A stretch of 64,000 nt of DNA, from contig JAJRSK010000053.1 in assembly GCA_024278835.1 (NCBI GenBank), positions 21,658-85,657 of the forward strand, in the 5' to 3' direction. The position numbers and the translations under genes were made by a program. Below, one piece after another: positions 2,668 to 61,502 of this stretch (the stretch's first letter is position 1; each line of letters begins with the position of its first letter). The notes below the pieces were generated by a model, which worked only from the letters and a program-made list of their open reading frames with translations, did not search any database and was not told the origin of the DNA. The DNA comes from Campylobacterales bacterium (GTDB lineage Bacteria; Campylobacterota; Campylobacteria; Campylobacterales; QNZT01).

Positions 2668-3336
2668 ATGATAAGCCAATCCATCCATATCCTCATCCTA
2701 GAAGATGACACCCTTTTTGCGGAGAGTTTAGAAGACTTTTTAGAAGAAGAGGGATTTTTTATCACCCTTGCACATGATGGTGAAAAAGCGTTGGAACTAG
2801 CCTACGAAAAGTATTTTGATTTGTTGTTACTGGATGTCAATGTACCTAAACTCACGGGTTTTGAGTTTCTATCTCATTTGCGAGAAAGACAACAAAATAC
2901 ACCTGCTATCTTCATCACCTCATTTAAAGATAAGCAAAGTATCAAAAAAGGCTTTCTACAAGGGGCGGATGACTATCTCACAAAACCTGTAGATTTAGAT
3001 GAATTGTTATTGCGTATTGTAGCTTTGCTGCGACGCTGCCACAAACTAGAGGAGTCTATCATGATAGGCACTGCCATCTTCTATCCCAAAAAGGGAATCA
3101 TTCACTCCCAAGGAGAGAAATATCAACCATCCAAAAAAGTTATTTTACTCTTAGAACTCCTTATAGCACATCAAAATACTATCGTTTCCACTGAACGTAT
3201 CTATGCGCATCTATGGGCTTGGGATGAGACACCTAGCCCCTCCTCTTTGCGTGTTTATATCAATGATCTCAAGAAGATATTAGGCAAAGAGCATATCATC
3301 AATCATAAAGGCATAGGATATAAACTTGCACTCTAA
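2668..3336 (+). CDS. OmpR-family response regulator
   Basis: Receiver domain (LEDD, DVNVP, GADDYLTKP) plus winged-helix C-terminus (LRVYINDLKK, GIGYKL). Confidence 0.93.
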   Translation: MISQSIHILILEDDTLFAESLEDFLEEEGFFITLAHDGEKALELAYEKYFDLLLLDVNVPKLTGFEFLSHLRERQQNTPAIFITSFKDKQSIKKGFLQGADDYLTKPVDLDELLLRIVALLRRCHKLEESIMIGTAIFYPKKGIIHSQGEKYQPSKKVILLLELLIAHQNTIVSTERIYAHLWAWDETPSPSSLRVYINDLKKILGKEHIINHKGIGYKLAL

Positions 3337-4168
3337 ACACGAAAGTTTTTACTTCAACAACGCCCTTATCATGATAGCTGTTATCAGTCTTGTTTTACTC
3401 TTGGAGTACTTTTTAACACCTTTTATACCACTCACTTCATTGCGTACTATCATCATTATTTTACTAGCATTAGCCGTACATTTTTTTCTCTCTACCTCCC
3501 TGCTTGAACACTACAAAGAACAAGAAAAAAATCTCAAAAATCTCGTTGATGAAACACTACACGAACTCAATACACCTATCAGTACTATCGAAGCCAATCT
3601 CAAAATGTTACAAAACGCACACAGCGATGAAAAAACCCTCAAACGTCTAGCAAGGATAAGCCAAGCGTCTAAAAACCTCAGCCACCTTTATGAAAGTATC
3701 GAGCACTCCATTAAAAATGAGATAGATACACTTGAAAAAGAGACCTTTGAACTGCATAGCCTAGTCAGGGATAGTATAGGAAAAGTGGTCGATATCCAAG
3801 GGGATATCATGATAGAAAATAGTATACCCACTATCATGATAAGTGCTAACAAGAATGGCTTTGAACGCAGCATCGATAACCTCCTCTCCAACGCCATCAA
3901 GTACAACAAAAAAAAGGGATTTGTAAAATTTTATTTGCAAGATAAAAAACTTTTTATTCAAGACTCTGGACATGGGATAGATAGCAAAAATCTTTTTATC
4001 ATCTTTGACAAGTCCTACCAAGAAAACCCCACAACTTTAGGCTTTGGTATAGGTTTAAGTATCGTAAAATCGTATTGTGACAAAGAGAAAATTGATATCA
4101 AAATAGATACAAAGAAGTCCATTGGTACCACTATCATGATGGACTTAAAAAATCTTATTAACGATTAA
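3326..4168 (+). CDS. Sensor histidine kinase
   Basis: Two N-terminal TM helices, H-box TLHELNTP, N-box NLLSNAIKY, G boxes DSGHGI and GFGIGL. Confidence 0.92.
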   Translation: MHSKHESFYFNNALIMIAVISLVLLLEYFLTPFIPLTSLRTIIIILLALAVHFFLSTSLLEHYKEQEKNLKNLVDETLHELNTPISTIEANLKMLQNAHSDEKTLKRLARISQASKNLSHLYESIEHSIKNEIDTLEKETFELHSLVRDSIGKVVDIQGDIMIENSIPTIMISANKNGFERSIDNLLSNAIKYNKKKGFVKFYLQDKKLFIQDSGHGIDSKNLFIIFDKSYQENPTTLGFGIGLSIVKSYCDKEKIDIKIDTKKSIGTTIMMDLKNLIND

Positions 4169-4189
4169 TTAACACTTCCTTGTTATACT
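4158..4189 (+). promoter_or_regulatory. Candidate OmpR-type direct repeat plus extended -10
   Basis: TTAAC at 4158 and 4169 (11-bp spacing), then TGnTATACT ending at 4189, just downstream of the two-component genes. Confidence 0.3.
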
Positions 4190-4246
4190 TCTCTTGTCTA
4201 TGAGAAATTTCCTACAAAAATTTTCAAAGTACAAGGTTGTATATAT

Positions 4247-4882
4247 ATGATATATAAAATGTTTATAACGCTAATACTGCTATCAACCTCCTCATATGGT
4301 AGCCTATACGATAAGGGCGAAAAGATCTACTCTATTATGTGTGATAAAGAGAAGATTTCTACCCTTAGTTATAGCGATGCTGATACGCTTAAACAGCAAA
4401 TAAAAAGCCAAAAACTATGCGGTAATTTAAATGATAAAAAGCTAAATGCTCTTAGCCATTTTCTCACTTCTAAAGAAAAAAGTACCAAAACAAAACATCT
4501 CGTAGTGCCTGAAGAATCTCGTTGTCCTGTTTGTGGTATGTTTATCTCCAAATATCCAAAGTGGGTTGCTATCATCGAAACTAAAGGGGGAGAGAAATAT
4601 TATTTTGATGGTGTCAAAGATATGATGAAATTTTATTTTGATCCTCTCAAGTTTCATCATGATAGGGAAGCAATTTCTCACATCATGGTGAGTGATTATT
4701 ATACGATTGAAGGGATAAATGCTAAAGAGGCTTACTATGTCATCGGCTCCAACATCTATGGACCTATGGGAGAAGAGTTGATACCCTTCAAAACGCAAGC
4801 CGATGCGCAAAACTTCTCGGATGAGCATCACGGAAAAAAGATACTTTCTTTTGATATGATACAAGAAAAATTTCTCTACTAA
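4247..4882 (+). CDS. NosL-family periplasmic (copper-chaperone-like) protein
   Basis: Signal peptide; CPVCGM, FDGVKDM, GSNIYGPMGEELIPF and AQNFSDEHHGK are NosL-domain motifs. Confidence 0.85.
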   Translation: MIYKMFITLILLSTSSYGSLYDKGEKIYSIMCDKEKISTLSYSDADTLKQQIKSQKLCGNLNDKKLNALSHFLTSKEKSTKTKHLVVPEESRCPVCGMFISKYPKWVAIIETKGGEKYYFDGVKDMMKFYFDPLKFHHDREAISHIMVSDYYTIEGINAKEAYYVIGSNIYGPMGEELIPFKTQADAQNFSDEHHGKKILSFDMIQEKFLY

Positions 4883-4933: not shown

Positions 4934-5101
4934 ATGATAGCACTCTTTAGCTTGCTAATCTTTTCGCCAAAACGCTATCATGATAGTGGTATATCTCCAC
5001 TAATCTCACGCGCAGGATTAGTACAAAGCAAGTCCGCTTATGAAGAGGATTTCTACCCTGCCCTTAAAGCGATCAATTACCAAGGATTTGTCCATGAATA
5101 A
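4934..5101 (+). CDS. Small hypothetical membrane/exported protein (~55 aa)
   Basis: Hand-translated: MIALFSLLIFSPKRYHDSG...FYPALKAINYQGFVHE*. Fills the operon gap, and its end overlaps the permease ATG at 5094. Start uncertain. Confidence 0.45.
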   Translation: MIALFSLLIFSPKRYHDSGISPLISRAGLVQSKSAYEEDFYPALKAINYQGFVHE

Positions 5102-6272
5102 ATCTGCATTTTTAAATTTTTTGTTTCTCTCACTTTACAAGCATAGAGCCAAACATATCGCGATATTTATCATTTCAACGCTGTTAATTTTCCTTCTTTC
5201 ATCGATGACTTTTATCTCCTCAGCCCTACAACAAGAGTCACTAAACACTCTCAAAGGAGAGAGCGACTTTCTACTTCAAAAGATGCGTTCAGGTCAGGCA
5301 GTGGACACACCGATAGCATGGGTAGATGAGATAGAAAAGATACGCGGTGTCTCCGTTGTTACCCCACGCATATATGGCAAATACCTCTTGCCCTATGATG
5401 AAAAGTACTTCACCATCATAGGCGTGGACTTTTTTGACGAACAAATCGTAGCAAACCTTAAAAAACTCTTCTTGGACCTTGATATAAAAAGCTTTTTACA
5501 AAAGGATCAGATGATAGTCGGCGAAGGGGTAAGAGCCTACATGAAACAAAATCACTATGATACATACTTCAACTTTTTAACACCACAAGGCGAAGAAAAA
5601 AGCGTTTCTATTTACGATAACTTTTCTCACGAAGGCAACTTAGTCAGCAATGATCTCATCATCATGAGTGCCGACTTAGCCAGAGAAATTTTGGGTGTCG
5701 ATGAAGAGGAAGTCAGTGACATCTCCATCTCCGTGCCCAACGAAGCTGAGAGGGATAATATCGCCTTTAAATTAAAATCTTTACATTTTGACGCACGCAT
5801 CATCGCCAAAACAGATATGCAAAGTGCCTATGAAAAATTTTATAACTATAAATCAGGGATATTTTTACTACTTTTTATCCTCTCACTTAGTACTTTTATG
5901 CTTATCCTCTACCAAAGATATGCGATGGTAGGTAGCAGCGATAAAAAAGAGATTGCTATCCTAAGGATGCTTGGTTGGAGTATCAAAGATGTACTCAAAC
6001 TCAAACTCTATGAGACACTTTTTATCAGTATATTTTCCTTTATGTTAGGCATCGTTTTGGCTTATGTTTTTGTCTTTGTTTTTAACGCACCCCTACTTCG
6101 TGATATCTTTTTAGGCTTTGGTAACTTAACGAACAACCCTTCGTTTCAACCTGTCATAGATGGAGGATTGATAGCTTCACTCTTTCTCTTTTTTATCTTA
6201 CCTTTTGTCTTTGCCGTTATCATCCCCGTGTGGCGTATCGCTATCATCGACCCTTACGAAGGTATGAAATGA
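5094..6272 (+). CDS. ABC transporter permease, FtsX/MacB-like
   Basis: TM helix, periplasmic domain, then 3 TMs; KKEIAILRMLGWS motif; ATG 5094 follows AAGGA. Confidence 0.85.
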   Translation: MNKSAFLNFLFLSLYKHRAKHIAIFIISTLLIFLLSSMTFISSALQQESLNTLKGESDFLLQKMRSGQAVDTPIAWVDEIEKIRGVSVVTPRIYGKYLLPYDEKYFTIIGVDFFDEQIVANLKKLFLDLDIKSFLQKDQMIVGEGVRAYMKQNHYDTYFNFLTPQGEEKSVSIYDNFSHEGNLVSNDLIIMSADLAREILGVDEEEVSDISISVPNEAERDNIAFKLKSLHFDARIIAKTDMQSAYEKFYNYKSGIFLLLFILSLSTFMLILYQRYAMVGSSDKKEIAILRMLGWSIKDVLKLKLYETLFISIFSFMLGIVLAYVFVFVFNAPLLRDIFLGFGNLTNNPSFQPVIDGGLIASLFLFFILPFVFAVIIPVWRIAIIDPYEGMK

Positions 6273-6286: not shown

Positions 6287-6955
6287 ATGATACAGATAAC
6301 AAACCTCAACAAAACATTTCACCCAGACACGGCACGCGCTTTCACAGCACTAGATAGTATCAACTTACAAATCAAAGAAAATGAACTCATCATCCTAAAA
6401 GGCGTCAGTGGTAGTGGCAAATCCACCCTACTTTCCATCATTGCTGGTTTACAAAAACCAACCCATGGAGAACTTTTAGTAGAAGGGGAATCCATCTCTA
6501 AACTTCCCGACTTGCACGCTTCACATTTTCGTGCCTCAAGCATCGGGTTCATCCCCCAAGCCTTCAATCTTTTTGAGACCTTAAGCGTAGAAGAAAATCT
6601 CTCCGTGGCACTCATCCCTCTAGGATTTTCGCCAAAAGAGATAGCCAAAAAAACCCAAAAAGCCCTAGAATTAGCGCTGATATCTCATAAAAGAAAAGAA
6701 CTCATCACTAATCTTTCAGGGGGCGAAAAGCAACGAACTGCCATCGCCAGAGCCCTCGTCAATGACGCGAAAATCATCCTTTGTGATGAACCCACCGCAA
6801 ACCTTGATACCCAAAATAGTAAAAAATTTATCATCATCATAGAAGAGCTTAAACGATTAGGGAAAACCATCATTATTGCCACACATGACCCATTATTTGA
6901 CACCCTATCCTTTAGCGACCGTATCATCAAAATGGAAGATGGAAAAATCTTGTGA
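6287..6955 (+). CDS. ABC transporter ATP-binding protein (LolD/MacB-type)
   Basis: Walker A GVSGSGKST, LSGGEKQR, DEPTANLD, ATHD; RBS AAGGAG before 6287. Confidence 0.92.
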   Translation: MIQITNLNKTFHPDTARAFTALDSINLQIKENELIILKGVSGSGKSTLLSIIAGLQKPTHGELLVEGESISKLPDLHASHFRASSIGFIPQAFNLFETLSVEENLSVALIPLGFSPKEIAKKTQKALELALISHKRKELITNLSGGEKQRTAIARALVNDAKIILCDEPTANLDTQNSKKFIIIIEELKRLGKTIIIATHDPLFDTLSFSDRIIKMEDGKIL

Positions 6956-7920
6956 CTGCCCAAATCCTCTTGCAAAATGAAGTCCTTATCTCTCTCTTTT
7001 CAGAGACACTCATCCTCATCCTCAACATCATCGCTATCATAGGTACCATAAAAATTCTCAAAAACTGGGACTTCAGTTCCACTTCACCCCAACAATATAA
7101 ACTAGAAAAACGTAGCTACCTTATCGTCCTCATCATCACAGTATCGCTACTTTTCAACATCTTACTCTTACCTTATTTTGCCTTTTGCCTTGAGAGTCTC
7201 TCTGCTATCGTACCTGGTGCGATGTGTGGTGCAGGAGTCATCTCTGCCAACCCCTATGGAAACCCTCTACTACTTCTAAAAATCCTCATACTCTTTTTCA
7301 TCGGCATCTGGCTCCTCATCAACCACGAAGATTTAAAAGCCAAAAACTACCCCTATACACGCAAAAAGTTTTGGTTTTTCTCCATCATCTTTATCATGAT
7401 AGCCACTTCTTATATATTAGAAATCGCCTATTTTAGCAATATATCCCTAGAAAAACCCGTCTCATGCTGCTCCGTCATCTTTGGACTTAGTGGTGCCAAC
7501 AGCTTGCCATTTGGCTTAAGCACACTCATGATAGTGGCTATCTTCTATCTACTAGCCTTACTAAGTTTTCTCTTTATATGGCAAAAACAAGCCTTTGCTT
7601 TGGCGTTCTCTAGTATAGGATTTTTATTTGTCGCGTACTACGCGATAACACACTTCTTTGGTACTTATATCTACCAACTCCCCACTCATATATGCCCTTT
7701 TTGTATGTTGCAAGGAGAGTACTACTATGTAGGATACTTGATATGGGGTTTACTCTTTGTAAGCGTATTTTTTGGAATAGCCAACGCAGTCCTAAGACTT
7801 ATCATCGGCAAAGAGTTAGTACGATTTTATCATTATGCCTTTATTACTTTGGTTTCCTTTATCATCATAACAGCTGGATATGTGGTAGTTTATGTTTTGA
7901 AAAATGGGGTTTGGTTATAA
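6952..7920 (+). CDS. Polytopic membrane protein with Cys/His motifs
   Basis: About 8 TM helices; GAMCGAG, SCCS and HICPFC motifs; translationally coupled to the ATPase. Confidence 0.75.
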   Translation: MTAQILLQNEVLISLFSETLILILNIIAIIGTIKILKNWDFSSTSPQQYKLEKRSYLIVLIITVSLLFNILLLPYFAFCLESLSAIVPGAMCGAGVISANPYGNPLLLLKILILFFIGIWLLINHEDLKAKNYPYTRKKFWFFSIIFIMIATSYILEIAYFSNISLEKPVSCCSVIFGLSGANSLPFGLSTLMIVAIFYLLALLSFLFIWQKQAFALAFSSIGFLFVAYYAITHFFGTYIYQLPTHICPFCMLQGEYYYVGYLIWGLLFVSVFFGIANAVLRLIIGKELVRFYHYAFITLVSFIIITAGYVVVYVLKNGVWL

Positions 7921-8559: not shown

Positions 8560-9297
8560 ATGATGAAAAAATACTTGATATTTTCATACGCAATAATTGG
8601 CTATTTATTTGCACTTAGCACTTTAACTTTTTTGATTTTCTGGGTCTATCCTTGGGACTTTATGCCCTTATATATCGACAATCCTATGAGTAATGTAGGC
8701 ATGAATCCTCTTATCATCGACATCAGTTTATTGCTCTTTTTTGCTTTGCAGCACTCTCTTATGGCTAGAAGTTTTTTTAAAGATGGGTTATTTAAAGACA
8801 TTTCATATGCCGTAAAATCTGCCACTTACTCTCTTGCTTCGTCACTCTGTCTCCTGCTTATCTACTACTTTTGGCAGCCACTTTATGGATATGTTTGGGT
8901 ATTTGAAAACAGCTTTATGTCTTGGGTGCTTAGTGCTGTATATCTCACTGGATGGTTCATTGCCTTTCTTGCTACTTTTATCATTGACCATTTTGAACTT
9001 TTTGGCTTGCATCAAGGATATAGAGTTTTGAAAAACATTCCTGAACCAGAAATTACGTTTCAAGTACGTTATTTTTATAAATATATCAGACATCCTATCC
9101 AGGCAGGTACACTGGTGGGTCTATGGGCGACACCTTCTATGAGTTATACTCATCTATTGTTAAGTATTGGTATGACTATTTATGTATTGATAGGTCTATA
9201 TTTTGAAGAAAAAAGTCTGCTAGTTACTTTTGGTGATGCATACAAAAACTATATGAAAACCACACCTATGTTAATTCCACTTATCAAAAGAAATTAA
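8560..9297 (+). CDS. mddA: Methanethiol S-methyltransferase-like (MddA / isoprenylcysteine carboxyl methyltransferase family)
   Basis: FALQHSLMAR, TFIIDHFELFGLHQ, YKYIRHPI...WATPSMS...HLL, EEKSL...Y..Y...PMLIP. Confidence 0.7.
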   Translation: MMKKYLIFSYAIIGYLFALSTLTFLIFWVYPWDFMPLYIDNPMSNVGMNPLIIDISLLLFFALQHSLMARSFFKDGLFKDISYAVKSATYSLASSLCLLLIYYFWQPLYGYVWVFENSFMSWVLSAVYLTGWFIAFLATFIIDHFELFGLHQGYRVLKNIPEPEITFQVRYFYKYIRHPIQAGTLVGLWATPSMSYTHLLLSIGMTIYVLIGLYFEEKSLLVTFGDAYKNYMKTTPMLIPLIKRN

Positions 9298-9335
9298 CAA
9301 ATCTTCTATCATGATAACTATGCTATAATCCTCTT

Positions 9336-9839
9336 ATGAAAAAATTAGCACCTATATTCACCACTGTACTTATCATGGCTATCATCATGATAATCTTCTT
9401 TTCACTAGCAAAACAAGAGCAAATGATAACGGTCTATAAAGACAACCATACCCAGGAACCACTTAAGCTAAATCTCCACCACCTACAGGATCCCCAATGT
9501 GCCATGGTCGTAGAAAAAAATGAATATGCCGCGCAACTGGCCGCAAAGAGCGGTAAAACTTGGGTATTTGATGATATCGGATGTTTGGTACTATGGCAAG
9601 ATGATAAAGTATTTATGGATGAACCAAGATTGTGGGTTTATACGATGGACTCTAAAAAGTGGATAGACGCCAAAAAAGCACACTACTCTGCTACAGAACG
9701 TACTCCTATGATTCATGGCTTTGGTGCGTATGAATATCCTGATGCAAAACTCATCGACTACGAGGAGATGCGCTTACGCGTGCTTCGTGGCGAAGATATG
9801 ACCAACCCAATTATCCGTAAAAAACTCTTAGGGATATAG
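9336..9839 (+). CDS. NosL-like membrane-anchored protein
   Basis: N-terminal TM; DPQCAM, FDDIGCL, WIDAKKAHY, TPMIHGFGA. Confidence 0.65.
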   Translation: MKKLAPIFTTVLIMAIIMIIFFSLAKQEQMITVYKDNHTQEPLKLNLHHLQDPQCAMVVEKNEYAAQLAAKSGKTWVFDDIGCLVLWQDDKVFMDEPRLWVYTMDSKKWIDAKKAHYSATERTPMIHGFGAYEYPDAKLIDYEEMRLRVLRGEDMTNPIIRKKLLGI

Positions 9840-10547
9840 ATGGACTCTATCAATCTACTCTCTATCATGACCATTGCCTTTTTAGGCTCATTTGGACACT
9901 GCGTAGGGATGTGTGGCGGTATTGTAGTCGCATATACCAGTACCAAAGTAGATGAAAAATGGTCAAAAACCACCCAAGCTTTTGCGCATTTCACCTACTC
10001 TTTGGGGCGTGTGAGCACATATGTACTCTTAGGTGCGCTCTTTGGTTATCTCGGTGGTGTGGCAACGTTTAACAACTATACCAATGGTGGCTTACTCGTC
10101 TTTGCCGGGGTCATCATGATACTAGCGGGGCTCTCTTTGATGGGTAAGGTCAAGTTTCTCACACTCATCGAACACTCTTTTTCAAAGTCCGAATGGTATC
10201 AAAAAAGTTTTCGCTCCCTATTGCACTCTAAAACACTCTTTTCTTTTTATCTATTGGGAATGTTAAACGGGCTTTTACCTTGTGGTTTTGTCTACTTTTT
10301 TGCCATCACTGCGGCAAGTACTGGTAGTGCACTTTGGGGTGCGATAGTGATGTTAGTATTTGGTTTGAGTACTATTCCTGCGATGTTTTCTATGGGATTT
10401 TTTGTGGGTCTATTTAAACAAAGTTCTTTTCGCTCACTTATGATAAAGTTCGCTTCCATCGCGGTCATAGGCTACGGATTGTTTACTATCTATAATGGAT
10501 ATGGATTTATTACAGATCCAACAAGGACGTTGTTACACTGTCACTGA
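9840..10547 (+). CDS. Sulfite exporter TauE/SafE or DsbD_2-family membrane protein
   Basis: GSFGHCVGMCGG, GRVSTY and GMLNGLLPCGFVY motifs. Confidence 0.85.
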   Translation: MDSINLLSIMTIAFLGSFGHCVGMCGGIVVAYTSTKVDEKWSKTTQAFAHFTYSLGRVSTYVLLGALFGYLGGVATFNNYTNGGLLVFAGVIMILAGLSLMGKVKFLTLIEHSFSKSEWYQKSFRSLLHSKTLFSFYLLGMLNGLLPCGFVYFFAITAASTGSALWGAIVMLVFGLSTIPAMFSMGFFVGLFKQSSFRSLMIKFASIAVIGYGLFTIYNGYGFITDPTRTLLHCH

Positions 10548-11200
10548 TGCTTATCATGATAGGGCGTTGGTTCCTTCAGTGAGATACGTCCTTTGCTTCT
10601 TCTTGCTACCGTATCTCTGTAAATCCATGCTTTTTTTATCTCTTCCCGACTCTCACAAGAAAGTTGAGGCTTCTCATACATTCCCTTGGCCTCTCTTTGC
10701 CCTTGTGCCTCATAAAGTACCAGTGCTGTAGCTACAGAGACATTAAGACTTTGTACCATGCCTTGCATGGGGATTGTGATGGTTTTGTCTGCTAACATGA
10801 TAAGCTCTTGCGAAACACCGTCTTTTTCGTTACCCACTATCATGATAGTAGGTAAGGTATAATCCACCTCTCTAAAAGAGATAGCATTTTTATCTAAGTG
10901 CGTAACAATCAGCTGATACCCTTGGGAGTGCTTTTGCTTTAAAAATTGAATCTTCTTCTCTTCATCTATCCTAAAACGATTTACCCAGCGGTGGGCACCT
11001 TGGGTGATAACTTTATGTGTATGAAAATGATTATTATCTTTATGGGTATAAAAAAGTTCTAGTACCCCAACAGCGTCACAGCTTCGAACGATAGCAGAAA
11101 GATTGTGAGCGTCGTGGACATCTTCCAAAAAAAGTAGTAGCGTGGGTTGCTTATTTTGTAGTGTTTTATCTATCTTTTCTTGACGTTTTTCACTATTCAT
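10541..11200 (-). CDS. trmH: tRNA (guanosine-2'-O)-methyltransferase, SpoU family
   Basis: HNLSAIVRSCDAVG, GNEKDGVS, IPMQGMVQSLNVSVA. Confidence 0.88.
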   Translation of the reverse strand: MNSEKRQEKIDKTLQNKQPTLLLFLEDVHDAHNLSAIVRSCDAVGVLELFYTHKDNNHFHTHKVITQGAHRWVNRFRIDEEKKIQFLKQKHSQGYQLIVTHLDKNAISFREVDYTLPTIMIVGNEKDGVSQELIMLADKTITIPMQGMVQSLNVSVATALVLYEAQGQREAKGMYEKPQLSCESREEIKKAWIYRDTVARRSKGRISLKEPTPYHDKHQ

Positions 11201-11205: not shown

Positions 11206-11559
11206 TCAGTCATCTAACTCATCCAGTACTTCTACCTGATAGTGTATCAATTCTAATTCTCTTTTGAGATGGGAATTTTCTTCTTTTAGGGCTGTGTAAG
11301 TATGGTATAAACCATTGATTTTTTTACTGCTATAGTAGATTTGGTTACTGATATATATCTTTGGAAGTAGTAAAAGAAGGACGGTAAAAATAGTGATAAA
11401 AACAAAGATGAGATTTTTAAAAGAGATATTTTCTGCCTCATTTAAGGCTTCATCATACTCTTCTAAAAGTAAATCTTTTTCGCGCATATCACTCTCAGTT
11501 GGTACGAAAAATTCTGAGTTTGGAGCTTCTACTTCTAAGGTTTTTTGCAATCTCTTCAC
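11206..11559 (-). CDS. FtsL-like bitopic coiled-coil protein
   Basis: Single TM then coiled coil (LKEENSHLKRELE); directly downstream of rsmH. Confidence 0.6.
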   Translation of the reverse strand: MKRLQKTLEVEAPNSEFFVPTESDMREKDLLLEEYDEALNEAENISFKNLIFVFITIFTVLLLLLPKIYISNQIYYSSKKINGLYHTYTALKEENSHLKRELELIHYQVEVLDELDD

Positions 11560-12406
11560 CTGTTGGGATAATCGGTTTTTTTGTCACAATTTTACCTATA
11601 TCATGATTGTTTCCACAAAGACAACGCATCACTTCTGGTGGACAAATACAGCTTTGACTCCACTCACGAAATGTCTGTTTCACGATACGATCTTCGAGGG
11701 AGTGAAAAGAGATTATAGCCACTAAACATTTAGATAGTTTTAAATTCCTAATAGAATCTAACAATTCTTTTAATTCTCCCAACTCATCATTGACTTCAAT
11801 ACGTATGGCTTGAAAAGGTAAAGTAGCAGGATGAATCTTCTTTGCATACAGATGCTTGGCGATAAATTCGCTTAGCTCTTTAGCAGATTCAAAATATTTC
11901 TCTTCTCTTTTTTTTACTATCAAATCAGCCAATTTTTTATATTCTCTCACTTCACCATAAACTTTAAAAATCTCTTCTAACTCTTCTCTTGTATAATGAT
12001 TCACAACATCATAGGCACTTAGTGCATGTTGAGGATCCATGCGCATATCCAAAATTTCGCTCTCAAAAGAAAATCCCCGACTCATTTTATCCAGCTGCAA
12101 AGAGGAGATACCAATATCTGCCAAAATACCTTTTATATCATAACCCTCAAACTCTTTTATTATAGTAGAAAAGCGTCCTTTGGCGAAAATTATCCTATCA
12201 TGATAGCCCTCTAGCCTCTTTTTGGAAAATGCCAAAGCTTCTTCATCTTGATCTATACAAATCATTTTTATATTGGGGTTTGATGCGAGGATTAGTTCAC
12301 TATGTCCACCATAGCCAACCGTACAATCTACGACATAGCCCTCTTTGATGTCAGCAAAAATTGCCTCTACTTCTGTAGGTAATACGGGAATATGTGGTAT
12401 TTGCAA
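11495..12406 (-). CDS. rsmH: 16S rRNA m4C1402 methyltransferase
   Basis: HIPVL, DCTVGYGGHS, DIGISSLQLD, FQAIRIEVNDEL, ISFHSLEDRIVK. Confidence 0.96.
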   Translation of the reverse strand: MQIPHIPVLPTEVEAIFADIKEGYVVDCTVGYGGHSELILASNPNIKMICIDQDEEALAFSKKRLEGYHDRIIFAKGRFSTIIKEFEGYDIKGILADIGISSLQLDKMSRGFSFESEILDMRMDPQHALSAYDVVNHYTREELEEIFKVYGEVREYKKLADLIVKKREEKYFESAKELSEFIAKHLYAKKIHPATLPFQAIRIEVNDELGELKELLDSIRNLKLSKCLVAIISFHSLEDRIVKQTFREWSQSCICPPEVMRCLCGNNHDIGKIVTKKPIIPTGEEIAKNLRSRSSKLRIFRTN

Positions 12407-22728: not shown

Positions 22729-22787
22729 CTTTTCCTCTTCTATTTTTATATGATATACTACCAAAAACAAAGTTAAAAAAGGTGCAA

Positions 22788-40337: not shown

Positions 40338-40342
40338 CTATC

Positions 40343-42179: not shown

Positions 42180-42252
42180 ATTTTCCCCTTTCAATATTGG
42201 AATAATATACCTTATCATGATACCTAAACTTATGTTTAATTTTTATTAAAAT

Positions 42253-50300: not shown

Positions 50301-50997
50301 CATTGGCAGCCAAAATACTATTGAGTGCACACGTCATTTTATTGAGATTTTGTGTACAGTTCCACTCATTACTATCTGAATAAAGATAATGATGCAAACC
50401 TACCCCTACAGTATCTGTGATAGTAACAGTCTTTGTATCTTCTGTACCGATATTTTCTACATCAATGCGGTAGGTAAACTCTTCTTTAGAATCAACACTA
50501 GCCACAAGACTTTTTGAAAATAGTATCTCATGAGATATGAGGGTTTTAGTAAAAGTATTATGTAGCTTAAAAAAACCTTTTGCCAAAAGTACCGAATCCG
50601 AAGAAGTAGCATTATTTTCTACTTTAAAAAAATAACTCTCTCCCGCATAAACACTTTGCGTGGTTTCTACTAGTCTGGGATTATCTTGATATTTAGTCGC
50701 CGTAGCGATAGGATTGCATGAGGCATCTAAAAAGTAGCCATAAGTATTAACAGTATTAACACCATCTTCTTCTGTACGAAGTTCTAGTGTACCATTCTCA
50801 ACAATGTTTATCTTATAGTAAAGTGACTCTCCCGAAGCAGCATCACCATCAATATAAGGTTGATCTATCTCTTGTTGATATGTAGTGCTATTTAATGTCA
50901 ATGTTGCTGTGGGCGCAGCACAAGAAGCCGCGGCATTCATCAAAGAAGGCAGATAGATGGACAATAAAAAAATAACTGATATAACGCTTTTTAACAT
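44362..50997 (-). CDS. 2211-aa secreted adhesin-like protein with DUF11-like Ig repeats and MshQ-like C-terminus
   Basis: Signal peptide; ~7 repeats of K..F.Y.L.VTN...V.ITDTLP...W.C....V.C...L; C-terminal YARLYAPDY and GSWAGTG...KIDW. Confidence 0.8.
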   Translation of the reverse strand: MLKSVISVIFLLSIYLPSLMNAAASCAAPTATLTLNSTTYQQEIDQPYIDGDAASGESLYYKINIVENGTLELRTEEDGVNTVNTYGYFLDASCNPIATATKYQDNPRLVETTQSVYAGESYFFKVENNATSSDSVLLAKGFFKLHNTFTKTLISHEILFSKSLVASVDSKEEFTYRIDVENIGTEDTKTVTITDTVGVGLHHYLYSDSNEWNCTQNLNKMTCALNSILAANGGKKSLYFTDISDFLAADTSIDIASDVNVTYNTAGTIDKSDTQQILVRGINPTIVAVKWALKDSSIISSIVQNDTFDYMIKVSNTTTNNKVTESNVTIVDDVDASFTVLSVTPDIPADWDCGATSGQHVECRLVNDLVKGADKGILIKVQATGAVKADAYHNTGTVTADTPLGTSINHSTTIPISIVNPSYTILFTKTNPDNAVAIDDNTTYTLSVTNTSNVPLDGVHIIDTFPSEFTFQKIDTFGASSWTCQAVVSNSVDCTYDGNLSVNESASIAVTLKATTLGSGILNTATLKTAQTADKNASKSIDIIEAYSSNLTINKTSSQDVILENDTFSYLLSVTNSGASEENNLTITDTIPSDFTVDANISSGAWNCTLSGNDVTCLLDSLASGQSADDINVSVTAPSTINSDKVVTNTAKVTSLRNSSGVSASKDVTLLSPSEAIKIHLSSAPNPVYEGEEFIYSLFITNNSQKTTDSVTLYDTLPVDVVLNSIDSGGWGCDYNSSTHEISCDTNGQQLTGTGKDIYFHVTAPNYEVNVTNHVQLSTDLDPYTREANVTTTVLAKTNALIFSQATVSKDPVNTNETFTYTIKVKNDNTGSLQSNIDASNIKVTLSLDNNLSLEDINASGWTCSSSASVVECLYDSNLSLGTETTPIKIDVSSTLAHYAITDVKVVSDKNSAGKMVSIPVDILEVENINLSLSVSDDKDPVAATGNYSYLLSVSNSGSSATANDIEVVIETTSSDNFTYNSVSGVGWVCTQSAIQVHCHLDSLASDSTSNFQLNVTAPDINDTVSIKASVSSSLINEVDSSDNSASESTQVLQFDKNADNLREFTQVLINGNLNTNIFGDVFTIGNQAICDNGSTGTCTEPEYAVNDWVYQEYANLDASSPYESSTSATLDITDNDEVVWAGLYWMGIIDRNAGDSSKIDRANYVYLRHESESLYIEVESDITKFNWKNDVTWGSDTFGYQGVSDVTEYVKSHKKGVYWVGDIQTTQGYNLSAGWSLVVVVQDKTQTRKLKNITLFDGFQAVWKNDEYEEAKQYPDFVKQTVSGFLTPNSGAVNSKLSLFGVEGDLTLKDSIAITDENNVTHKLSNTLNPIDDIVNGTISHDGVIDTQRTPALTNTSGIDIDTFDVSSIIGNGQSTTDITVASEGDRFYLGMFAFSTELYLPKMCYVETMTNADYSPLTNNREFYLGDKVGFEVSIQNDENETARNVVLKTEVDVIYQDTNESVEIQNVGEASYSSHNDLWESTEINSTNAEGDITPQTLFSARVGVGADSVKGGNMDHGDKVYSRYNGIIDGMPDTNLTQNIYKISYEIENMPAVVETTISKCFDFNQSIYISQAKPKGFSITHAGGLTDGVSDNSGNENHLYTQLVDTDFQVDIVSLESDFSTSRVHRGVVRLDLADVNATIPEDATEEVSEGICKSYATLASHYVSFSDMDRITQTLAYHDSGKNLGLRILYPVSKYKDYATWSGINPNSLSDFKAMLDASRVTACQSECGTSSDIDTCRNCVFNLSGSVSKASCSSDVFAIRPKTIMMDANETTLKGGRDYNLTLEANASSYNQNFAPNSMNYELLRPIGCGLSPESGTINSNSFSFADGNASIATFTYHNIGDINVSLVDTLWTLSDQNSTDSTMSDCIMGSVSNVLVGGKYGCNIQGVKKFSFVPSRFKNEVNLQNDDNTTFTYLDDAGTRRARAFMTITALLDDDTTASNYTAGCYAKDINYTFGPATSMPSMQVYSDERTQQLAPNHFKTGDGNFSSGEAFPILGINFARSKTTAVNPFDLNSSSLYIYLEDEDGVEGDGFENDVGVAKYYYARLYAPDYLSIESSNFRAGLFYEVYCDEDGGCDKGAFNMTGLNESRDHVNWYIFNANHKSTYGDYDASSVVSTTGGLTVTAPSSFAVDLTLSSSAKRPYCDRISLRPDAWFAYDKHNPAQADKLSFKACFISTGSWAGTGDIGMTVDSNISKKKNTKIDW

Positions 50998-51348: not shown

Positions 51349-51807
51349 TTATTTTATTTTATTTGTCTTTTTTAGCACTGCTGGGTTGATGGCAATGAGA
51401 TTGATAATACTCTCCCCTTGTGGTGTGACTTGTCTGTAAGTTTTAAACACACCTTTAATGACTCTTGCTTTTTTATCTAAGATAAACTCTTTTCTACTAT
51501 CTTCGCGCAAACGGATGATATATCTAATCTTCTTATCTACATTTTCTGGATCTTGTGCATGAAAAAGAACATTGGGGCTATGCTTCATACTTTCCTCTAT
51601 CTCTTTAAGCATCTTGTCATCTATCATGATAGAGAGTGTGACAAACTTTTTATCATGCGAGTAGAGAAACTTATTAAGTGATGCTATTTTTTCACTTGAA
51701 GTTAGTGCTCCCTCATGCGCATCAAACTCCTTATCCAACATAAACTGATAAACAAACACTATCATGATAAGCGCTATAGCTATCCATAAGAGTATCTTTT
51801 TAATCAT
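51349..51807 (-). CDS. Hypothetical membrane-anchored protein
   Basis: N-terminal TM helix; translationally coupled to the permease. Confidence 0.7.
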   Translation of the reverse strand: MIKKILLWIAIALIMIVFVYQFMLDKEFDAHEGALTSSEKIASLNKFLYSHDKKFVTLSIMIDDKMLKEIEESMKHSPNVLFHAQDPENVDKKIRYIIRLREDSRKEFILDKKARVIKGVFKTYRQVTPQGESIINLIAINPAVLKKTNKIK

Positions 51808-53009: not shown

Positions 53010-53012
53010 AGA

Positions 53013-55753: not shown

Positions 55754-56281
55754 ATGCCCATCAAACTGTTCGTGCTATCGAGTCTACTGGCAACAAGCAC
55801 AATCTTTGCCAATAATTTAAATATCCAAACTTTAGAATCAAATTTCAAACAGAGTATCACCAATGATCAAAATGCAAAGATAGTCTACACCGGCAAAATG
55901 TATGCCACACAAGCTAAGAATCAAGCCCTTTGGGAGTATAATGCCCCCATTGTTAAAAAGATTTATTATACAGGTGGAAAGCTAGTCATCATTGAACCTG
56001 AGTTGGAACAAGTTATTTATGCTAAGTTAGATAAAGTACCCAATGTTTTAAAATTGATAAAATCCGCAAAAAAAGTAGCAGAGGATACATTACAAACACG
56101 TTTTAACTCTATCACCTACAATATCCTGATAGAAGGCAATAAAATAATTAATATCACCTACATCGATGAGATGCAAAACTCTGTTGCTATCGAGTTTAGT
56201 GATGAAAAAGTGAATAAATTTTTTAATGATAGTGTGTTTGCTTACACAATCCCAGCGGATTATGATATTTTAGAGCAGTAG
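55754..56281 (+). CDS. lolA: Outer-membrane lipoprotein chaperone LolA
   Basis: Signal peptide, FKQSITN, ALWEYNAP, IIEPELEQV; divergent from secA. Confidence 0.85.
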   Translation: MPIKLFVLSSLLATSTIFANNLNIQTLESNFKQSITNDQNAKIVYTGKMYATQAKNQALWEYNAPIVKKIYYTGGKLVIIEPELEQVIYAKLDKVPNVLKLIKSAKKVAEDTLQTRFNSITYNILIEGNKIINITYIDEMQNSVAIEFSDEKVNKFFNDSVFAYTIPADYDILEQ

Positions 56282-56291
56282 ATAACGCTTC

Positions 56292-56322
56292 TATCATGAT
56301 AGGCTACACACCTATCATGATA
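56292..56322. terminator. Hairpin built from two copies of the iterated palindrome
   Basis: TATCATGATAGG-ctacaca-CCTATCATGATA between convergent lolA and the YcbK-like gene. Confidence 0.65.
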
Positions 56323-56330
56323 AGACTATT

Positions 56331-56909
56331 TTAACCTCTTCTCCAAGTTCTTACAGGACCCACATCGACATGAAGAAAGTGTGATGTAGGATAGTAACCA
56401 ACCCCTCCTCGCTTAAGACCTAACGCCACATCTCTTAATTTTCTCAACGAAACATTTGGTACGTAGATATCTACCGCCTGTCCTTTGATATGATAAGAGT
56501 TTTTAGCCACACCTTCGTGTGTTTTTCTCAATTGTGCATTGGTATGTGCAGAGCGATACCCTGAAACGATATTAAACTGTTTATCATATCCTAGATGTTG
56601 CTTAATCTCATACAGTAAGTTCACAAGCTTAACATCAATACGTGTCATCTCTTTGGCACGGTAGTCGATAAATGCCTTATTGACTTCAAAAAGTCCAGAA
56701 AGTTTGTAGTAGTTTTTTTCAAAGAATGGTGCATAAAATGTTTTATTTAGATGTACGTTATGGAGTTTCAGTACCTTCTTTTCTCCCACTGCCGCTAAGA
56801 TCTCACTTTGAGTCATCATAGCAGCACCCGTAATAATCGCCGACTTTTTTAAGAAATTTCGTCTAGAAATCCCTACAGTTTGCGCTTTTTCAACAATATT
56901 CAAATCCAA
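56331..56909 (-). CDS. YcbK/DUF882 Tat-exported M15 peptidase
   Basis: SRRNFLK Tat motif; SGYRS..TN, SYHIKGQAVD, GGVGYYP..HFLHVDVGPVRTW. Confidence 0.9.
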   Translation of the reverse strand: MDLNIVEKAQTVGISRRNFLKKSAIITGAAMMTQSEILAAVGEKKVLKLHNVHLNKTFYAPFFEKNYYKLSGLFEVNKAFIDYRAKEMTRIDVKLVNLLYEIKQHLGYDKQFNIVSGYRSAHTNAQLRKTHEGVAKNSYHIKGQAVDIYVPNVSLRKLRDVALGLKRGGVGYYPTSHFLHVDVGPVRTWRRG

Positions 56910-58888: not shown

Positions 58889-59755
58889 TTATTCTTGACA
58901 TTTTTGTAGTGCAAGCCCCTCTCTAAGCCCATCATCTATCACAAGCATCTCACTAAATCCAGCCTCTATCATGATAGCTTTGACCATGAGTACCCCCGCC
59001 ACAATCAAATCGTCACGCCCAACACCCACCCAGCGTTCACGCTCTTTTTTCTCCATAGCAAGCAATCTTTCAAGTGCCTCATCCAAATCATCCAAACCAA
59101 GATGGCTACCATTGACCTTCTTTACATCATAGTGGGCATAATCCAGGCCCATGTTAAATGCAGCGATAGTCGTCGGTGTACCCGCAGTAGCTACAAATAT
59201 CTTAGGCTTTTGCAAGCTGTTGATAAAGTGACTTATCGGATGCACAATGCAATCTATATTTTCCCTCACCCCCTGCGCAGAACCGTACTTTTGCGCCACT
59301 GTCACGATACCGACATCAAAGCTTTTTGACCTATCCCCTATCGTAATCTCCGTAGAACCCCCACCCAAATCCATCAACATATAACTATCATGATAGCCCA
59401 ACTTTTCCAAGCGCCACGACACCGCCAAAGCAGTCAATCTTGCCTCTTGCTTTGCCTCTATCATGATAAAGCGAAGTCCGGTTTTTGCTTCAATAGCTCT
59501 TAAAATCTCTTTGCCATTACTTGCCATACGCACCGCCGCAGTAGTGACCGCATGGGCTTTGGATAAATCAAATAACCCTTTTGCTTCCAAAATAGCATCA
59601 ATGATTCTCTCCAAAGCTTCTTTACTTATCCGCCCACTCTCATGCAAACCATCCGCTGTCTTTACCATGCGCTCAAACTCCTTTATGCGATCTCCGCTTT
59701 CGCAATCCAATTCAACAATTCGTAAGGTATTTGAGCCTAAATCACAAGCTATCAT
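58889..59755 (-). CDS. Ppx/GppA-family phosphatase
   Basis: CDLGSNTLR, TTAAVR, EA, DLGGGSTE, GLREGL. Confidence 0.9.
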   Translation of the reverse strand: MIACDLGSNTLRIVELDCESGDRIKEFERMVKTADGLHESGRISKEALERIIDAILEAKGLFDLSKAHAVTTAAVRMASNGKEILRAIEAKTGLRFIMIEAKQEARLTALAVSWRLEKLGYHDSYMLMDLGGGSTEITIGDRSKSFDVGIVTVAQKYGSAQGVRENIDCIVHPISHFINSLQKPKIFVATAGTPTTIAAFNMGLDYAHYDVKKVNGSHLGLDDLDEALERLLAMEKKERERWVGVGRDDLIVAGVLMVKAIMIEAGFSEMLVIDDGLREGLALQKCQE

Positions 59756-59793
59756 GATAGAATATCTCCAACAATTTTTTAAAGGATAACACA

Positions 59794-60573
59794 ATGCTAC
59801 TTGGAGTCAATATAGACCATATCGCTGTCTTAAGAGAAGCAAGAAAGATAAATGATCCAGATCCACTCGATGCCATCGCCTTAGCAGTGCGTGCAGGTGC
59901 TGACCAGATAACGATACACCTGCGAGAAGATAGACGACATATCAATGATGATGACGCACGCCGTATCATCGCACACTCACCAGTACCAGTCAACTTGGAA
60001 TGCTCTGTCAATCCTGATATCGTTGAGATAGTGGCAGAACTCAAACCTCATCGCGCCACATTTGTACCTGAGAATAGAGAAGAAGTCACTACAGAGGGCG
60101 GATTGAACTTTGAAACACAGTATGCCAATCTGGATAAAGCAGTCCATTATCTCAAAGCCAGAGAAATTGAAACTTCTTTTTTTATCGACCCCACCAAAGA
60201 GGCTATCAAAGCAGCCAAGGGAATTGGTGTAGCGTGGGTAGAACTGCATACTGGTGCTTACGCCAATATCTATGCGATGTTATACTCAAACCTCAAAAAC
60301 ACACCCCATTGTATAAAGGAGCTCGATGTAGAGCGTAGCAAACTAAGCAAGATGTTAAAAGCCTCTTTAGAAGCACTAGAAATTGCGGCAGATGAAGGAG
60401 AAGAGTATGGACTCAAAGTCGCCGCGGGGCATGGCCTCAACTACCAAAATGTCAAAGCTATTTGTGCGCTGCAAAATATCGTAGAACTAAACATCGGACA
60501 GAGTATCATCGCAAGATCAGTTTTTTCAGGTTTTGAAGAGGCTGTAAAAGAGATGAGAGCCCGACTACAATGA
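59794..60573 (+). CDS. pdxJ: Pyridoxine 5'-phosphate synthase
   Basis: LGVNIDHIAVLREAR, HLREDRRHI, ELHTG, AGHGLNY, ELNIGQSII. Confidence 0.97.
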   Translation: MLLGVNIDHIAVLREARKINDPDPLDAIALAVRAGADQITIHLREDRRHINDDDARRIIAHSPVPVNLECSVNPDIVEIVAELKPHRATFVPENREEVTTEGGLNFETQYANLDKAVHYLKAREIETSFFIDPTKEAIKAAKGIGVAWVELHTGAYANIYAMLYSNLKNTPHCIKELDVERSKLSKMLKASLEALEIAADEGEEYGLKVAAGHGLNYQNVKAICALQNIVELNIGQSIIARSVFSGFEEAVKEMRARLQ

Positions 60574-61502
60574 AGCTAGCAATCTCTATTGGTGACTTGA
60601 ATGGTATCGGCATCGAAATCGCACTTACATCTCATGAAGAGATAAAAAAACTCTGCCATCCCCTCTATATCATCAACGATGCCATGTTAGAGCAAGCTAG
60701 CACTCTTTTAGGCTTGCCCATCCCTAAGGATTTTGAAACATATAGCGCAGGGGAAGATTTCACCATCACCCCCAGCCAAGCAACAAAAGAGAGCGGACAA
60801 TACGCTTATGACTCTTTTCTCACCGCCATCGCCCTTTGTCAACAAAACATCACCCAAGGTATCGTCACCCTCCCCATCAACAAAGAAGCATGGGACAAAG
60901 CAGGCGTGGAATACAAAGGGCATACCGATATGCTGGCAGATGTCTTTTCCAAAGAGGCTATCATGATGATTGGCTGTGAAAAGTTATTTGTTGCACTCTT
61001 TACCCACCATATCCCACTCAAAGAGGTACCAAACAACATAAAATCCCAGCCCTTAAAACACTTTATGACTTCTCTCTATCATGAAATAAAAGAAGAAAAG
61101 ATAGGTGTGCTTGGACTCAATCCTCATGCGGGGGACAATGGCGTTATCGGAGATGAGGAAAAAGAGATTAAAAAAGCTATCAAAGAAGCCAATGAAGAGT
61201 TGATGGATGATATCTTTGTAGGACCACTAGTGCCAGATACTGCCTTCACCCCAGCGATGCGAAAAAAGATAAAATACTTTGTCTGCATGTACCATGACCA
61301 AGGACTCATTCCCACTAAAGCCCTCTACTTTGATGAGGGCATCAATGTCTCACTGAACCTTCCTATCATCAGAACTTCCGTAGACCATGGCACGGCATAT
61401 GACAAGGCGTATCATGATAGTAATCCTTCAATACTTTCTTATCTCAATGCTATAAAAGAGGCGGTAAGACTAGGCATAAAAAGAAAAAAGTTTAAGATTT
61501 AG
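60570..61502 (+). CDS. pdxA: 4-hydroxythreonine-4-phosphate dehydrogenase
   Basis: GDLNGIG.EI, GHTD, GLNPHAGD, MYHDQGLIP, RTSVDHGTA. Confidence 0.96.
   Translation: MKLAISIGDLNGIGIEIALTSHEEIKKLCHPLYIINDAMLEQASTLLGLPIPKDFETYSAGEDFTITPSQATKESGQYAYDSFLTAIALCQQNITQGIVTLPINKEAWDKAGVEYKGHTDMLADVFSKEAIMMIGCEKLFVALFTHHIPLKEVPNNIKSQPLKHFMTSLYHEIKEEKIGVLGLNPHAGDNGVIGDEEKEIKKAIKEANEELMDDIFVGPLVPDTAFTPAMRKKIKYFVCMYHDQGLIPTKALYFDEGINVSLNLPIIRTSVDHGTAYDKAYHDSNPSILSYLNAIKEAVRLGIKRKKFKI

Follow-up and report, generated by a model that had tools for sequence, protein, structure and literature searches.

Hyperabundant short words are rare in bacterial genomes, and the highly iterated palindrome HIP1 of cyanobacteria, the DNA uptake sequences (DUS) of Neisseriaceae and the uptake signal sequences (USS) of Pasteurellaceae have proved highly instructive about transformation, self-recognition and molecular drive. 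DUS and USS are iterated words of 9-12 bp that form hairpin pairs at the 3' ends of genes, split into dialects and are scarce in acquired DNA; both are asymmetric, and the receptor of DUS is the pilin ComP. In Campylobacter jejuni, transforming DNA is reportedly discriminated by the methylated motif RAATTY, whose writer is said to be the adenine methyltransferase CtsM. Chi, a mark of resident DNA, is strand-oriented and only few-fold enriched. Repetitive extragenic palindromes (REPs) are 20-40 nt long, imperfect, intergenic and mobilised as units. As for HIP1 (GCGATCGC), the accessible part of one preprint reports that it raised the transformation of a cyanobacterium in a methylation-dependent manner (bioRxiv 10.1101/2024.09.10.611283), and that of a second paper proposes it as an uptake sequence (PMC13756078). 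Here we describe the palindrome TATCATGATA, which is dispersed throughout a 64,000-nucleotide stretch from an uncultured Campylobacterales bacterium related to Sulfurospirillum (hereafter the window, G000:C65:21658-85657) and the assembly to which it belongs (G000, the genome under study; 2,507,854 bases in 77 contigs, 37.6% G+C, 99.99% complete); G001 and G002 denote the other two species of its genus, g1. The first-pass annotation, made from the window alone, had placed the host in Campylobacterota, and this was borne out by a comparison of FtsA, in which the nearest named records were metagenome-assembled genomes labelled uncultured Sulfurospirillum sp. or Campylobacterales bacterium (95%, then 84-86%), with Sulfurospirillum arcachonense at 69%.

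Within the window, 36 exact copies of TATCATGATA were found from position 3057 to 61419, whereas 100 dinucleotide-preserving shuffles averaged 0.17 copies and never gave more than 2. The annotation's count of 36 copies was thus reproduced, as were its flank counts (5' C in 23/36, 3' G in 21/36 and the full 12-mer CTATCATGATAG in 12/36), and the six single-mismatch copies that it had named all proved real among a window total of 31. Genome-wide, the word occurs 1549 times, or once per 1.6 kb. It outranks every other 10-mer of G000, the words next in rank being its own overlapping extensions. When all copies were aligned, the preceding base was C in 61% and T in 24%, the following base was G in 63% and A in 24%, and the flanks were informative at ±1 alone. 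Since flank information is confined to these two positions, what is repeated is a discrete 12-mer with dyad symmetry, YTATCATGATAR, beyond which nothing is conserved: a perfect 10-bp palindrome with symmetric Y/R flanks, and not an oriented or asymmetric word of the DUS/USS type. An A-rich tract at -8 was considered as an extension of the word and rejected, because it reflects codon periodicity (-8, -11, -14, -17, -20). The one-mismatch variants found above expectation were transitions only, chiefly at the outer positions (CATCATGATA, 274 copies, 4.8-fold; TGTCATGATA, 126 copies, 5.1-fold), together with the C-to-T neighbour TATTATGATA (48 observed, 26 expected, 1.8-fold), and the remaining single-mismatch variants stood at 0.7-1.3-fold; this spectrum therefore marks TCATGA as the strict core. 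TCATGA itself occurs 2754 times in G000, 1902 of them within ATCATGAT, which is the reverse of the site avoidance expected of a restriction-modification target.

The excess of YTATCATGATAR, a highly iterated palindrome specific to its genus, holds over all null models. Markov models of orders 0-2 gave observed/expected ratios of 101-258 in G000, and models of orders 3-8 trained on motif-masked sequence still gave 17-61. Naive models of orders 6-8 gave ratios of 1.6-1.0, a disappearance of signal that the first-pass annotation had named as grounds for abandoning its claim; these ratios approach 1 because the training set contains the motif's own sub-words, so that naive high-order and maximum-order tests are circular and invalid as a refutation, and they were replaced by motif-masked training, codon shuffles and a dicodon chain. 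Coding sequence was defined by crude greedy calls of the longest open reading frames (ORFs; 2433 ORFs covering 91.4% of the genome), in which 1181 copies were observed compared to 11.3 ± 3.5 expected when codon order was shuffled within genes and 212 ± 11 when synonymous codons were shuffled. The dicodon chain predicted 122.8 occurrences of ATC-ATG-ATA, of which 794 were observed (with the extra tenth base of the word fixed in 757/794), and 81.3 of TAT-CAT-GAT, of which 490 were observed (tenth base fixed in 424/490); the chain is itself inflated by the motif, and the excess over it is still about 6-fold, so that the enrichment claimed from the window outlived the codon and dicodon nulls as well.

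The synonymous shuffle retained as many as 212 copies because the proteins themselves are inflated in I-M-I and Y-H-D, the two peptides that the word encodes. Across the proteome, Y-H-D was found 512 times compared to 36.9 expected (13.9-fold) and I-M-I 829 times compared to 135.1 (6.1-fold), and these are its two most over-represented tripeptides; the word has bent the proteome. That two reading frames are used, and that 375 copies lie outside or across ORFs, shows that the signal acts at the DNA level and not at the peptide level.

Set beside HIP1, as it is described in the accessible portions of two papers (PMC4390886, PMC5861425), the word shares a perfect palindromic form, an over-representation of tens- to hundreds-fold at about 0.3-2.7 copies per kb, an occurrence in both ORFs and spacers, an absence of conserved flanks, a symmetric extendability and a conservation of sites beyond background. 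According to the same partial sources, some HIP1 lineages have likewise swapped their word for another palindrome, and both systems have a core that coincides in part with common targets of methyltransferases and encode an orphan enzyme of the D12 class. Among the traits that define the HIP class, a hyperabundant perfect palindrome (15-300-fold in HIP1 genomes), dispersal, lack of conserved flanks and conservation above the oligomer background were found here; membership is nevertheless meant only in the broad sense, as the word is YTATCATGATAR and not GCGATCGC or a derivative of it. The two further differ in that the present word belongs to Campylobacterota, is AT-rich, measures 10-12 bp and has a CATG/TCATGA core where HIP1 has GATC/CGATCG; it is accompanied by neither a Vsr nor a cognate 5-methylcytosine (m5C) methyltransferase kept across the genus; it changes between genera and even within one, whereas HIP1 spans a phylum; and it carries ATG and TGA, which often form starts, stops and ATGA overlaps.

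Wholly within ORFs lie 1174 of the 1549 copies (76%), with 224 being intergenic and 151 straddling ORF ends. Only two frames occur in ORFs, I-M-I (752 copies) and Y-H-D (422 copies), the third being unused because its reading would give TGA. About 123 ORFs begin at the word's ATG and about 65 end at its TGA, often in an ATGA overlap; given the crude ORF calls, both figures are approximate. Density was highest in convergent spacers (1.95 per kb), followed by tandem spacers (1.13), divergent spacers (0.93) and ORFs (0.51). The spacing between neighbours was near Poisson with two exceptions: no pair lay closer than 15 bp, and pairs at 15-30 bp were in excess (61 observed, 13.5 expected, 4.5-fold), with a peak at 21 bp (12 pairs compared to about 3.8 per position). 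These close pairs were found in ORFs (28) as well as in spacers (23), and those in convergent spacers fold into 13-bp hairpins, of which the window holds two examples. The first (39434-39463, 13-bp stem) consists of copies at 39436-39445 (left arm) and 39452-39461 (right arm) between the convergent ORFs 38944-39426 (+) and 39463-40116 (-), with a folding energy of -17.9 kcal/mol (z = -4.6, 0/200 shuffles as good); the second (56290-56325) consists of a full 12-mer at 56292-56301 (left arm) and a copy at 56313-56322 (right arm) between the convergent ORFs 55754-56281 (+) and 56331-56909 (-), at -16.3 kcal/mol (z = -5.5, 0/200 shuffles as good).

In these respects the word resembles DUS and USS, being 9-12 bp long, present about once per 1-2 kb in ORFs and spacers, and arranged as inverted pairs at gene ends. 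The resemblance extends to the peptide bias, the enrichment at 3' ends with hairpin pairs, the lineage dialects, the scarcity in acquired DNA and the presence of competence genes, the last three of which are described below. The difference is one of form and reader: the two uptake words lack symmetry, and the pilin ComP recognises DUS, whereas the word described here is a perfect palindrome.

Confinement to the window or to one assembly, which the first-pass annotation had named as a refutation, was not seen. All three species of genus g1 are rich in TATCATGATA, with 1549 copies in G000, 1236 in G001 (1.6 Mb) and 1028 in G002 (2.3 Mb), and the other 38 of the 41 genomes compared (genus and relatives) hold 0-93 copies. 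Counts of the 12-mer in 32 species genomes of the family showed the same pattern, with 583, 453 and 262 in genus g1 compared to 0-15 in the other 29; the enrichment of TATCATGATA is confined to one genus. The highest count outside it belongs to G013 of genus g8 (93 copies of TATCATGATA in 1.8 Mb, 15 of the 12-mer), a genome of about 29% G+C (20-kb sample) that carries the D12 methyltransferase; this intermediate count could reflect a nascent word, a decaying word or an effect of composition. A search of sequencing runs gave one strong match, which may be the source sample, and two of small share, with no RNA run among the matches listed. A scan of viral contigs for paired copies returned 32 loci, none of them word-rich at chromosome-like density along its length; they were tandem repeats or local clusters and are uninformative.

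To follow individual sites, orthologous DNA of the three species was aligned. Between G000 and G001 (151 kb aligned, 80.3% identity), 64 sites were common, 14 were found in G000 only and 27 in G001 only, so that 64/78 G000 sites (82%) were kept compared to 15.7% of arbitrary 10-mer windows. Between G000 and G002 (215 kb aligned, 74.5% identity), 56 sites were common, 50 were found in G000 only and 30 in G002 only, which gives 56/106 (53%) kept compared to 8.5%. Relative to this control, which comprises all 10-mers and not matched palindromes, orthologous sites are kept 5-6 times above background, with continuing turnover. In a small three-way alignment (22 kb, 15 sites), all three species had the word at 4 sites, and G000 and G001 alone had it at 5. 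At 3 further sites it occurred in G002 only, opposite unrelated sequence in the other two species; 1 site was private to G000, and 2 had been lost in G000 via single transitions. Each lineage has also acquired sites of its own. At word sites, outgroup loci aligned without gaps and carried unrelated codons (e.g. F-G/K-D where the genus has Y-H-D, at window position 12196). Because the outgroup orthologues align in this way, the sites have been made by several substitutions at variable protein positions, and not by insertion.

The word marks native DNA, and acquired islands are without it. The longest word-free stretches of G000 are low-G+C accessory regions, namely defence, polysaccharide and integrase islands and a type I-F cas locus. 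One such island of 15 kb (G000:C37:103105-118191, 32.6% G+C) encodes UvrD-like, MrfA-Zn-domain and DEAD/ResIII helicases, an AAA_15 ATPase and an Eco57I-like methyltransferase, and by its gene content looks like a DISARM- or Dpd-like defence locus. A word-free stretch of 14 kb (G000:C45:54315-68669) carries a gene for a type I-F Cas2-Cas3 fusion.

Other palindromes take the place of TATCATGATA elsewhere in the order. In FtsA-region loci of other lineages we found 11 copies of TGGTACCA in 21 kb, and 11 copies of TAGTACTA plus 5 of TTAGTACTAA. The word (T)TTACATGTAA(A) is enriched in about 20 FtsA-region loci (e.g. L055, L057, L059, L062, L063, L086), among them named Sulfurospirillum records, and TTACATGTAA reaches 108-1312 copies in 9/161 genomes of the order (G053, G084, G098, G112, G174, G150 and G162 of family f23; G135 and G159 of family f16), the other genomes having 0-49. 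Within genus g23 one species of six, G159, is rich in it, unlike G039, G080, G095, G109 and G147, and within genus g30 its count ranges from 49 in G138 to 1312, with G053, G098 and G112 all above 1000. In g4, a sister genus of g1, TRGTACYA occurs 1403 and 467 times in two of four species (G010 and G018; loci L031 and L033), compared to 101 and 127, a background level, in the other two (G005 and G014) and 9-263 elsewhere in the family; the GTAC-cored palindromes of g4 are TAGTACTA or TTAGTACTAA, and TGGTACCA. The phenomenon is thus recurrent in Campylobacterales, and its dialects can differ within one genus. Separately, relatives of 51-56% G+C (L047 and L049; L114 and L115, which are G006 and G007) contained 4-7 copies each of GCGATCGC, CGATATCG and GATCGATC per 17-20 kb, an excess of about 10-25-fold over simple expectation in these locus samples.

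Candidate machinery was sought in G000 by regular expression and Pfam searches, which returned five DNA methyltransferases: two m5C enzymes, one D12-class adenine methyltransferase, one N6_Mtase and one Eco57I-like enzyme. Vsr (PF03852) was not found in G000, nor was an intact PF01555 enzyme, for which this genome gave only broken, sub-threshold matches. The two m5C enzymes, the N6_Mtase and the Eco57I-like enzyme were rejected as writers, as they are not kept across genus g1 or lie within the word-free island. Only the D12 methyltransferase is common to all three species, the G001 and G002 copies being 82% and 78% identical to that of G000, and the G002 copy is intact with a DPPY motif legible in its translation, an apparent stop codon in it having proved to be its normal terminator. 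The G000 gene (G000:C77:12916-13926, +; loci L014 and L017) is an orphan that lies between an exonuclease III-type gene and selO, with no adjacent restriction-type nuclease. It belongs to a large family whose members in Campylobacterota and Bacteroidota records share about 65% identity. The protein had no PDB relative by sequence and no informative NCBIfam match, and by NCBIfam it does not count as a canonical Dam. A MutS1-type protein with domains I, II, III and V (G000:C23:1-2793, -; L198) is cut by a contig end and measures about 980 aa in relatives; it was rejected as a word-specific partner, being present in 22/24 family genomes. MutL (PF01119) was not detectable in this 99.99% complete assembly. 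Among the candidates examined, neither a reader nor a writer gene was identified. The uptake machinery encoded in G000 comprises ComEC, four HHH_3/ComEA-like proteins, three secretins and DprA. The gene for the last, dprA, a competence and recombination-mediator gene with a DNA_processg_A domain (28166-28930, -; domain at G000:C65:50003-50566, E = 1.1e-53), had been noted in the window as consistent with competence; the gene is indeed there, in the company of the other competence genes, and as support for competence it is weak evidence.

The reading that we prefer, tentatively, is that the word may be a palindromic self-DNA tag, possibly methylated, that is tied to natural transformation. A genome-wide directional process would write YTATCATGATAR by point substitutions into about 1,500 places of native DNA, in ORFs, gene junctions and spacers alike, and the same process would hold it there against mutational decay. 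A dimeric, sequence-specific protein would read the word as double-stranded DNA, and DNA bearing it, possibly with N6-methyladenine in the CATG core, would be favoured in uptake or recombination. Round after round of transformation within the species could then spread the word through biased gene conversion, the molecular drive that has been proposed for DUS, USS and recently HIP1, and TTACATGTAA, TGGTACCA and TAGTACTA in related lineages would be dialects of the same system. We lean towards a transformation tag because it accords with how densely the word is spread, with its paired copies at 3' ends, with the bias in peptides, with the existence of dialects and with precedents both for HIP1 and within the phylum; both density and length (one per 1.6 kb, 10-12 bp) match those of uptake sequences. 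The precedent within the phylum, CtsM and RAATTY, is likewise a palindromic self-DNA mark for transformation in C. jejuni, but RAATTY, a hexamer that is short and degenerate, does not have to be enriched, whereas here a long exact word is amplified more than 100-fold and methylation is putative.

Several observations weigh against a transformation tag. Any sequence-specific process confined to resident DNA would lead just as well to conservation between species, absence from islands and dialects, and the 21-bp peak of pair spacing suits cooperative binding of a protein no less than it suits uptake. The word is a perfect palindrome, while the known DUS and USS are not. Since bacteria commonly carry competence genes, finding them here is not discriminating. 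No receptor candidate was identified for the word; only generic uptake machinery turned up, and no search for a ComP-type receptor was made. The distribution of the one methyltransferase common to the genus does not follow that of the words: D12 is present in 16/38 relatives without the word, 8 of those being full-length at 57-65% identity, and it is absent from 3/9 TTACATGTAA-rich genomes, namely G150 (570 copies), G159 (340) and G174 (238). The co-occurrence with a methyltransferase that the first-pass annotation had put forward as a check thus gave a mixed picture. HIP1 co-occurs with the cognate orphan methyltransferases DmtA (GATC) and DmtC (CGATCG); here D12 is found in 3/3 species of the genus and also in word-less relatives.

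Extended to the order, the preferred reading becomes more speculative: Campylobacterales might use fast-switching palindromic self words with a CATG or GTAC core (TATCATGATA, TTACATGTAA, TGGTACCA, TAGTACTA), each written by a sequence-specific reader, paired with methylation, coupled to transformation and setting recombination barriers between lineages, as a palindromic and methyl-tagged analogue of the DUS dialects. We regard this as a possibility that is more doubtful than plausible.

A methylation/repair origin, which we consider unlikely, would have an orphan methyltransferase mark the CATG or TCATGA core, with repair ratcheting near-matches into the word, or with the methylated word acting as a strand signal for mismatch repair, as Elhai suggested for HIP1. 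The cores of all the words found (CATG, TCATGA, ACATGT and GTAC) are classic targets of type II methyltransferases, and the orphan D12 enzyme is intact in 3/3 species of the genus. D12 homologues occur in 9/12 genomes with a CATG-cored word compared to 0/4 genomes of g4, whose words have a GTAC core; for TTACATGTAA taken alone, they occur in 6/9 rich genomes and in 4/11 relatives of those lineages that lack the word. With a MutS1-type protein and no detectable MutL in G000, any mismatch repair would need unconventional nicking or an unconventional strand signal, and the accessible part of Elhai's 2015 paper links HIPs to methyltransferases (PMC4390886). The distribution of D12 described above makes the enzyme neither necessary nor sufficient, however, and MutS1-like proteins are too widespread in the family to be word-specific. 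In its m5C/Vsr form the explanation is disfavoured: no Vsr was found in G000, its two m5C methyltransferases and its N6_Mtase are not common to the genus, and the T-for-C neighbour TATTATGATA, which should be depleted under a Vsr-type ratchet, is instead enriched. Of the three mechanisms that the first-pass annotation had offered, a self-DNA uptake tag, a methylation- or repair-driven motif and the site of a chromosome-organising protein, the second is therefore disfavoured in its m5C/Vsr form, and none is proved.

The word could also be the binding site of an abundant dimeric chromosome protein, serving nucleoid organisation or the loading of condensin or segregation factors, or an orientation-free, Chi-like self signal, and this too seems improbable. 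The perfect 6+6 dyad would suit a homodimer, the enriched close pairs, which occur in both ORFs and spacers, peak at 21 bp, or two helical turns, and the sites are conserved between species. For HIP1, a role in chromosome structure has been argued from periodicity in the accessible part of one paper (PMC5861425), and a Chi-like role has been suggested from transformation data in that of the preprint cited above (bioRxiv 10.1101/2024.09.10.611283). Switches to unrelated words inside a single genus, as in g4 and g23, are hard to reconcile with a core architectural protein. To our knowledge, the sites of nucleoid, segregation and occlusion proteins number tens, compared to some 1,500 here, and do not reshape protein sequences. 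Chi shares with the word the character of a short over-represented mark of resident DNA, but Chi is strand-oriented and modestly enriched, whereas the word is palindromic and 100-250-fold enriched.

That the word spread as a REP-like or other miniature mobile element, whether through a transposase or through insertion, is very improbable and in practice excluded. Its high copy number, the 2-4 times higher density in intergenic than in coding DNA and the presence of some intergenic hairpins recall REPs, bacterial interspersed mosaic elements and miniature inverted-repeat transposable elements, which likewise comprise hundreds to thousands of palindromic copies. Those elements are longer units (more than 20 nt), intergenic and inserted as blocks, whereas the word is 12 bp long, lies mostly in ORFs with the frame kept, has no conservation past ±1 (the weak flank signal being that of codon periodicity) and stands where outgroup orthologues align without gaps, which points to substitution. 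The view that it is a dispersed palindrome akin to HIP1, DUS and USS, and neither a clustered regularly interspaced short palindromic repeat array nor a set of operators, accordingly held, and a mobile element can be added to what it is not. That the word is an artefact, produced by composition, by the usage of codons or amino acids or by the assembly, as the naive Markov ratios near 1 and the 212 copies left by the synonymous shuffle might suggest, is the least probable explanation of all and in practice excluded, given the motif-masked Markov models, the inflated I-M-I and Y-H-D peptides from which those 212 copies stem, the excess over the dicodon chain and the recurrence of the word at orthologous positions in three species-level assemblies.

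The copies in the window illustrate the range of these placements. Read as I-M-I, the word lies at 3057-3066 in ORF 2668-3336 (+), with C and G as flanks; at 3367-3376 (T and G flanks), 3805-3814 and 3832-3841 in ORF 3326-4168 (+), the last two being paired at a spacing of 27; at 7392-7401 in ORF 6952-7920 (+); at 10838-10847, as the 12-mer, in ORF 10541-11200 (-); at 19446-19455, also as the 12-mer, in ORF 18741-19886 (-) and at 22892-22901 in ORF 22722-23843 (+), at both of which the outgroups are unrelated; at 27472-27481, 27712-27721 and 27733-27742 in ORF 27361-27789 (-), the last two being paired at a spacing of 21; at 31767-31776 in ORF 30984-32006 (-); at 51622-51631 (12-mer) and 51760-51769 in ORF 51349-51807 (-); and at 58967-58976 (12-mer), 59459-59468 and 59750-59759 (12-mer) in ORF 58889-59794 (-), which holds a further 12-mer at 59386-59395 read as Y-H-D. 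The Y-H-D frame is also used at 10552-10561 in ORF 10541-11200 (-); at 12196-12205 (12-mer) in ORF 11495-12406 (-), where 19 outgroup loci align ungapped with unrelated codons, mostly F-G/K-D; at 26392-26401 in ORF 25990-27018 (+); at 27309-27318 in ORF 27027-27371 (+); at 41894-41903 in ORF 41634-42218 (-); at 45942-45951 (12-mer) in ORF 44362-50997 (-); and at 61410-61419 in ORF 60570-61502 (+). The ORF at 44362-50997 encodes 2211 aa with DUF11-type repeats, probably a large surface protein, and contains this one copy in 6.6 kb.

Four copies fall on gene boundaries. That at 19881-19890 spans the ATGA stop/start overlap of ORFs 19883-20500 (-) and 18741-19886 (-), and that at 28164-28173 spans the stop of dprA and the start of ORF 27786-28169 (-); at 40339-40348 the word's ATG is the first start codon of a DinB/Pol IV-like ORF (40343-41605, +), and the copy at 42213-42222 contains the start codon of ORF 41634-42218 (-). 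Besides the hairpin arms, intergenic copies lie at 4976-4985 (full 12-mer) between ORFs 4247-4882 (+) and 5040-6272 (+), at 9307-9316 between ORFs 8560-9297 (+) and 9336-9839 (+), and at 36821-36830 (12-mer) between an acetate-CoA ligase ORF (34800-36737, -) and ORF 36851-37651 (-).

In the literature searched, judged by titles and abstracts and with the supplements of the HIP1 papers not covered, no account of TATCATGATA or TTACATGTAA as a feature of genomes turned up, nor any report of an uptake- or HIP-type word in Campylobacterota. What is new here is the word, the phylum and the length, the HIP/uptake-sequence kind being already known; the phenomenon is extended to Campylobacterota with a longer, AT-rich word, and several other words are shown for lineages related to it, which include cultured Sulfurospirillum. 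In practical terms, the word inflates I-M-I and Y-H-D, supplies starts and stops and cleanly marks native from acquired DNA. Because it differs or is absent among species of a single genus, the responsible gene should be findable by comparative genomics, and the contrasts within g4, g23 and g30 (one word, another word or none) are natural experiments for finding the reader or writer. The function of HIP1 is still debated, and a self-word system in Campylobacterales, if true, would bear on that 30-year-old question; for these organisms themselves, the word could be a key to transformation in the laboratory.

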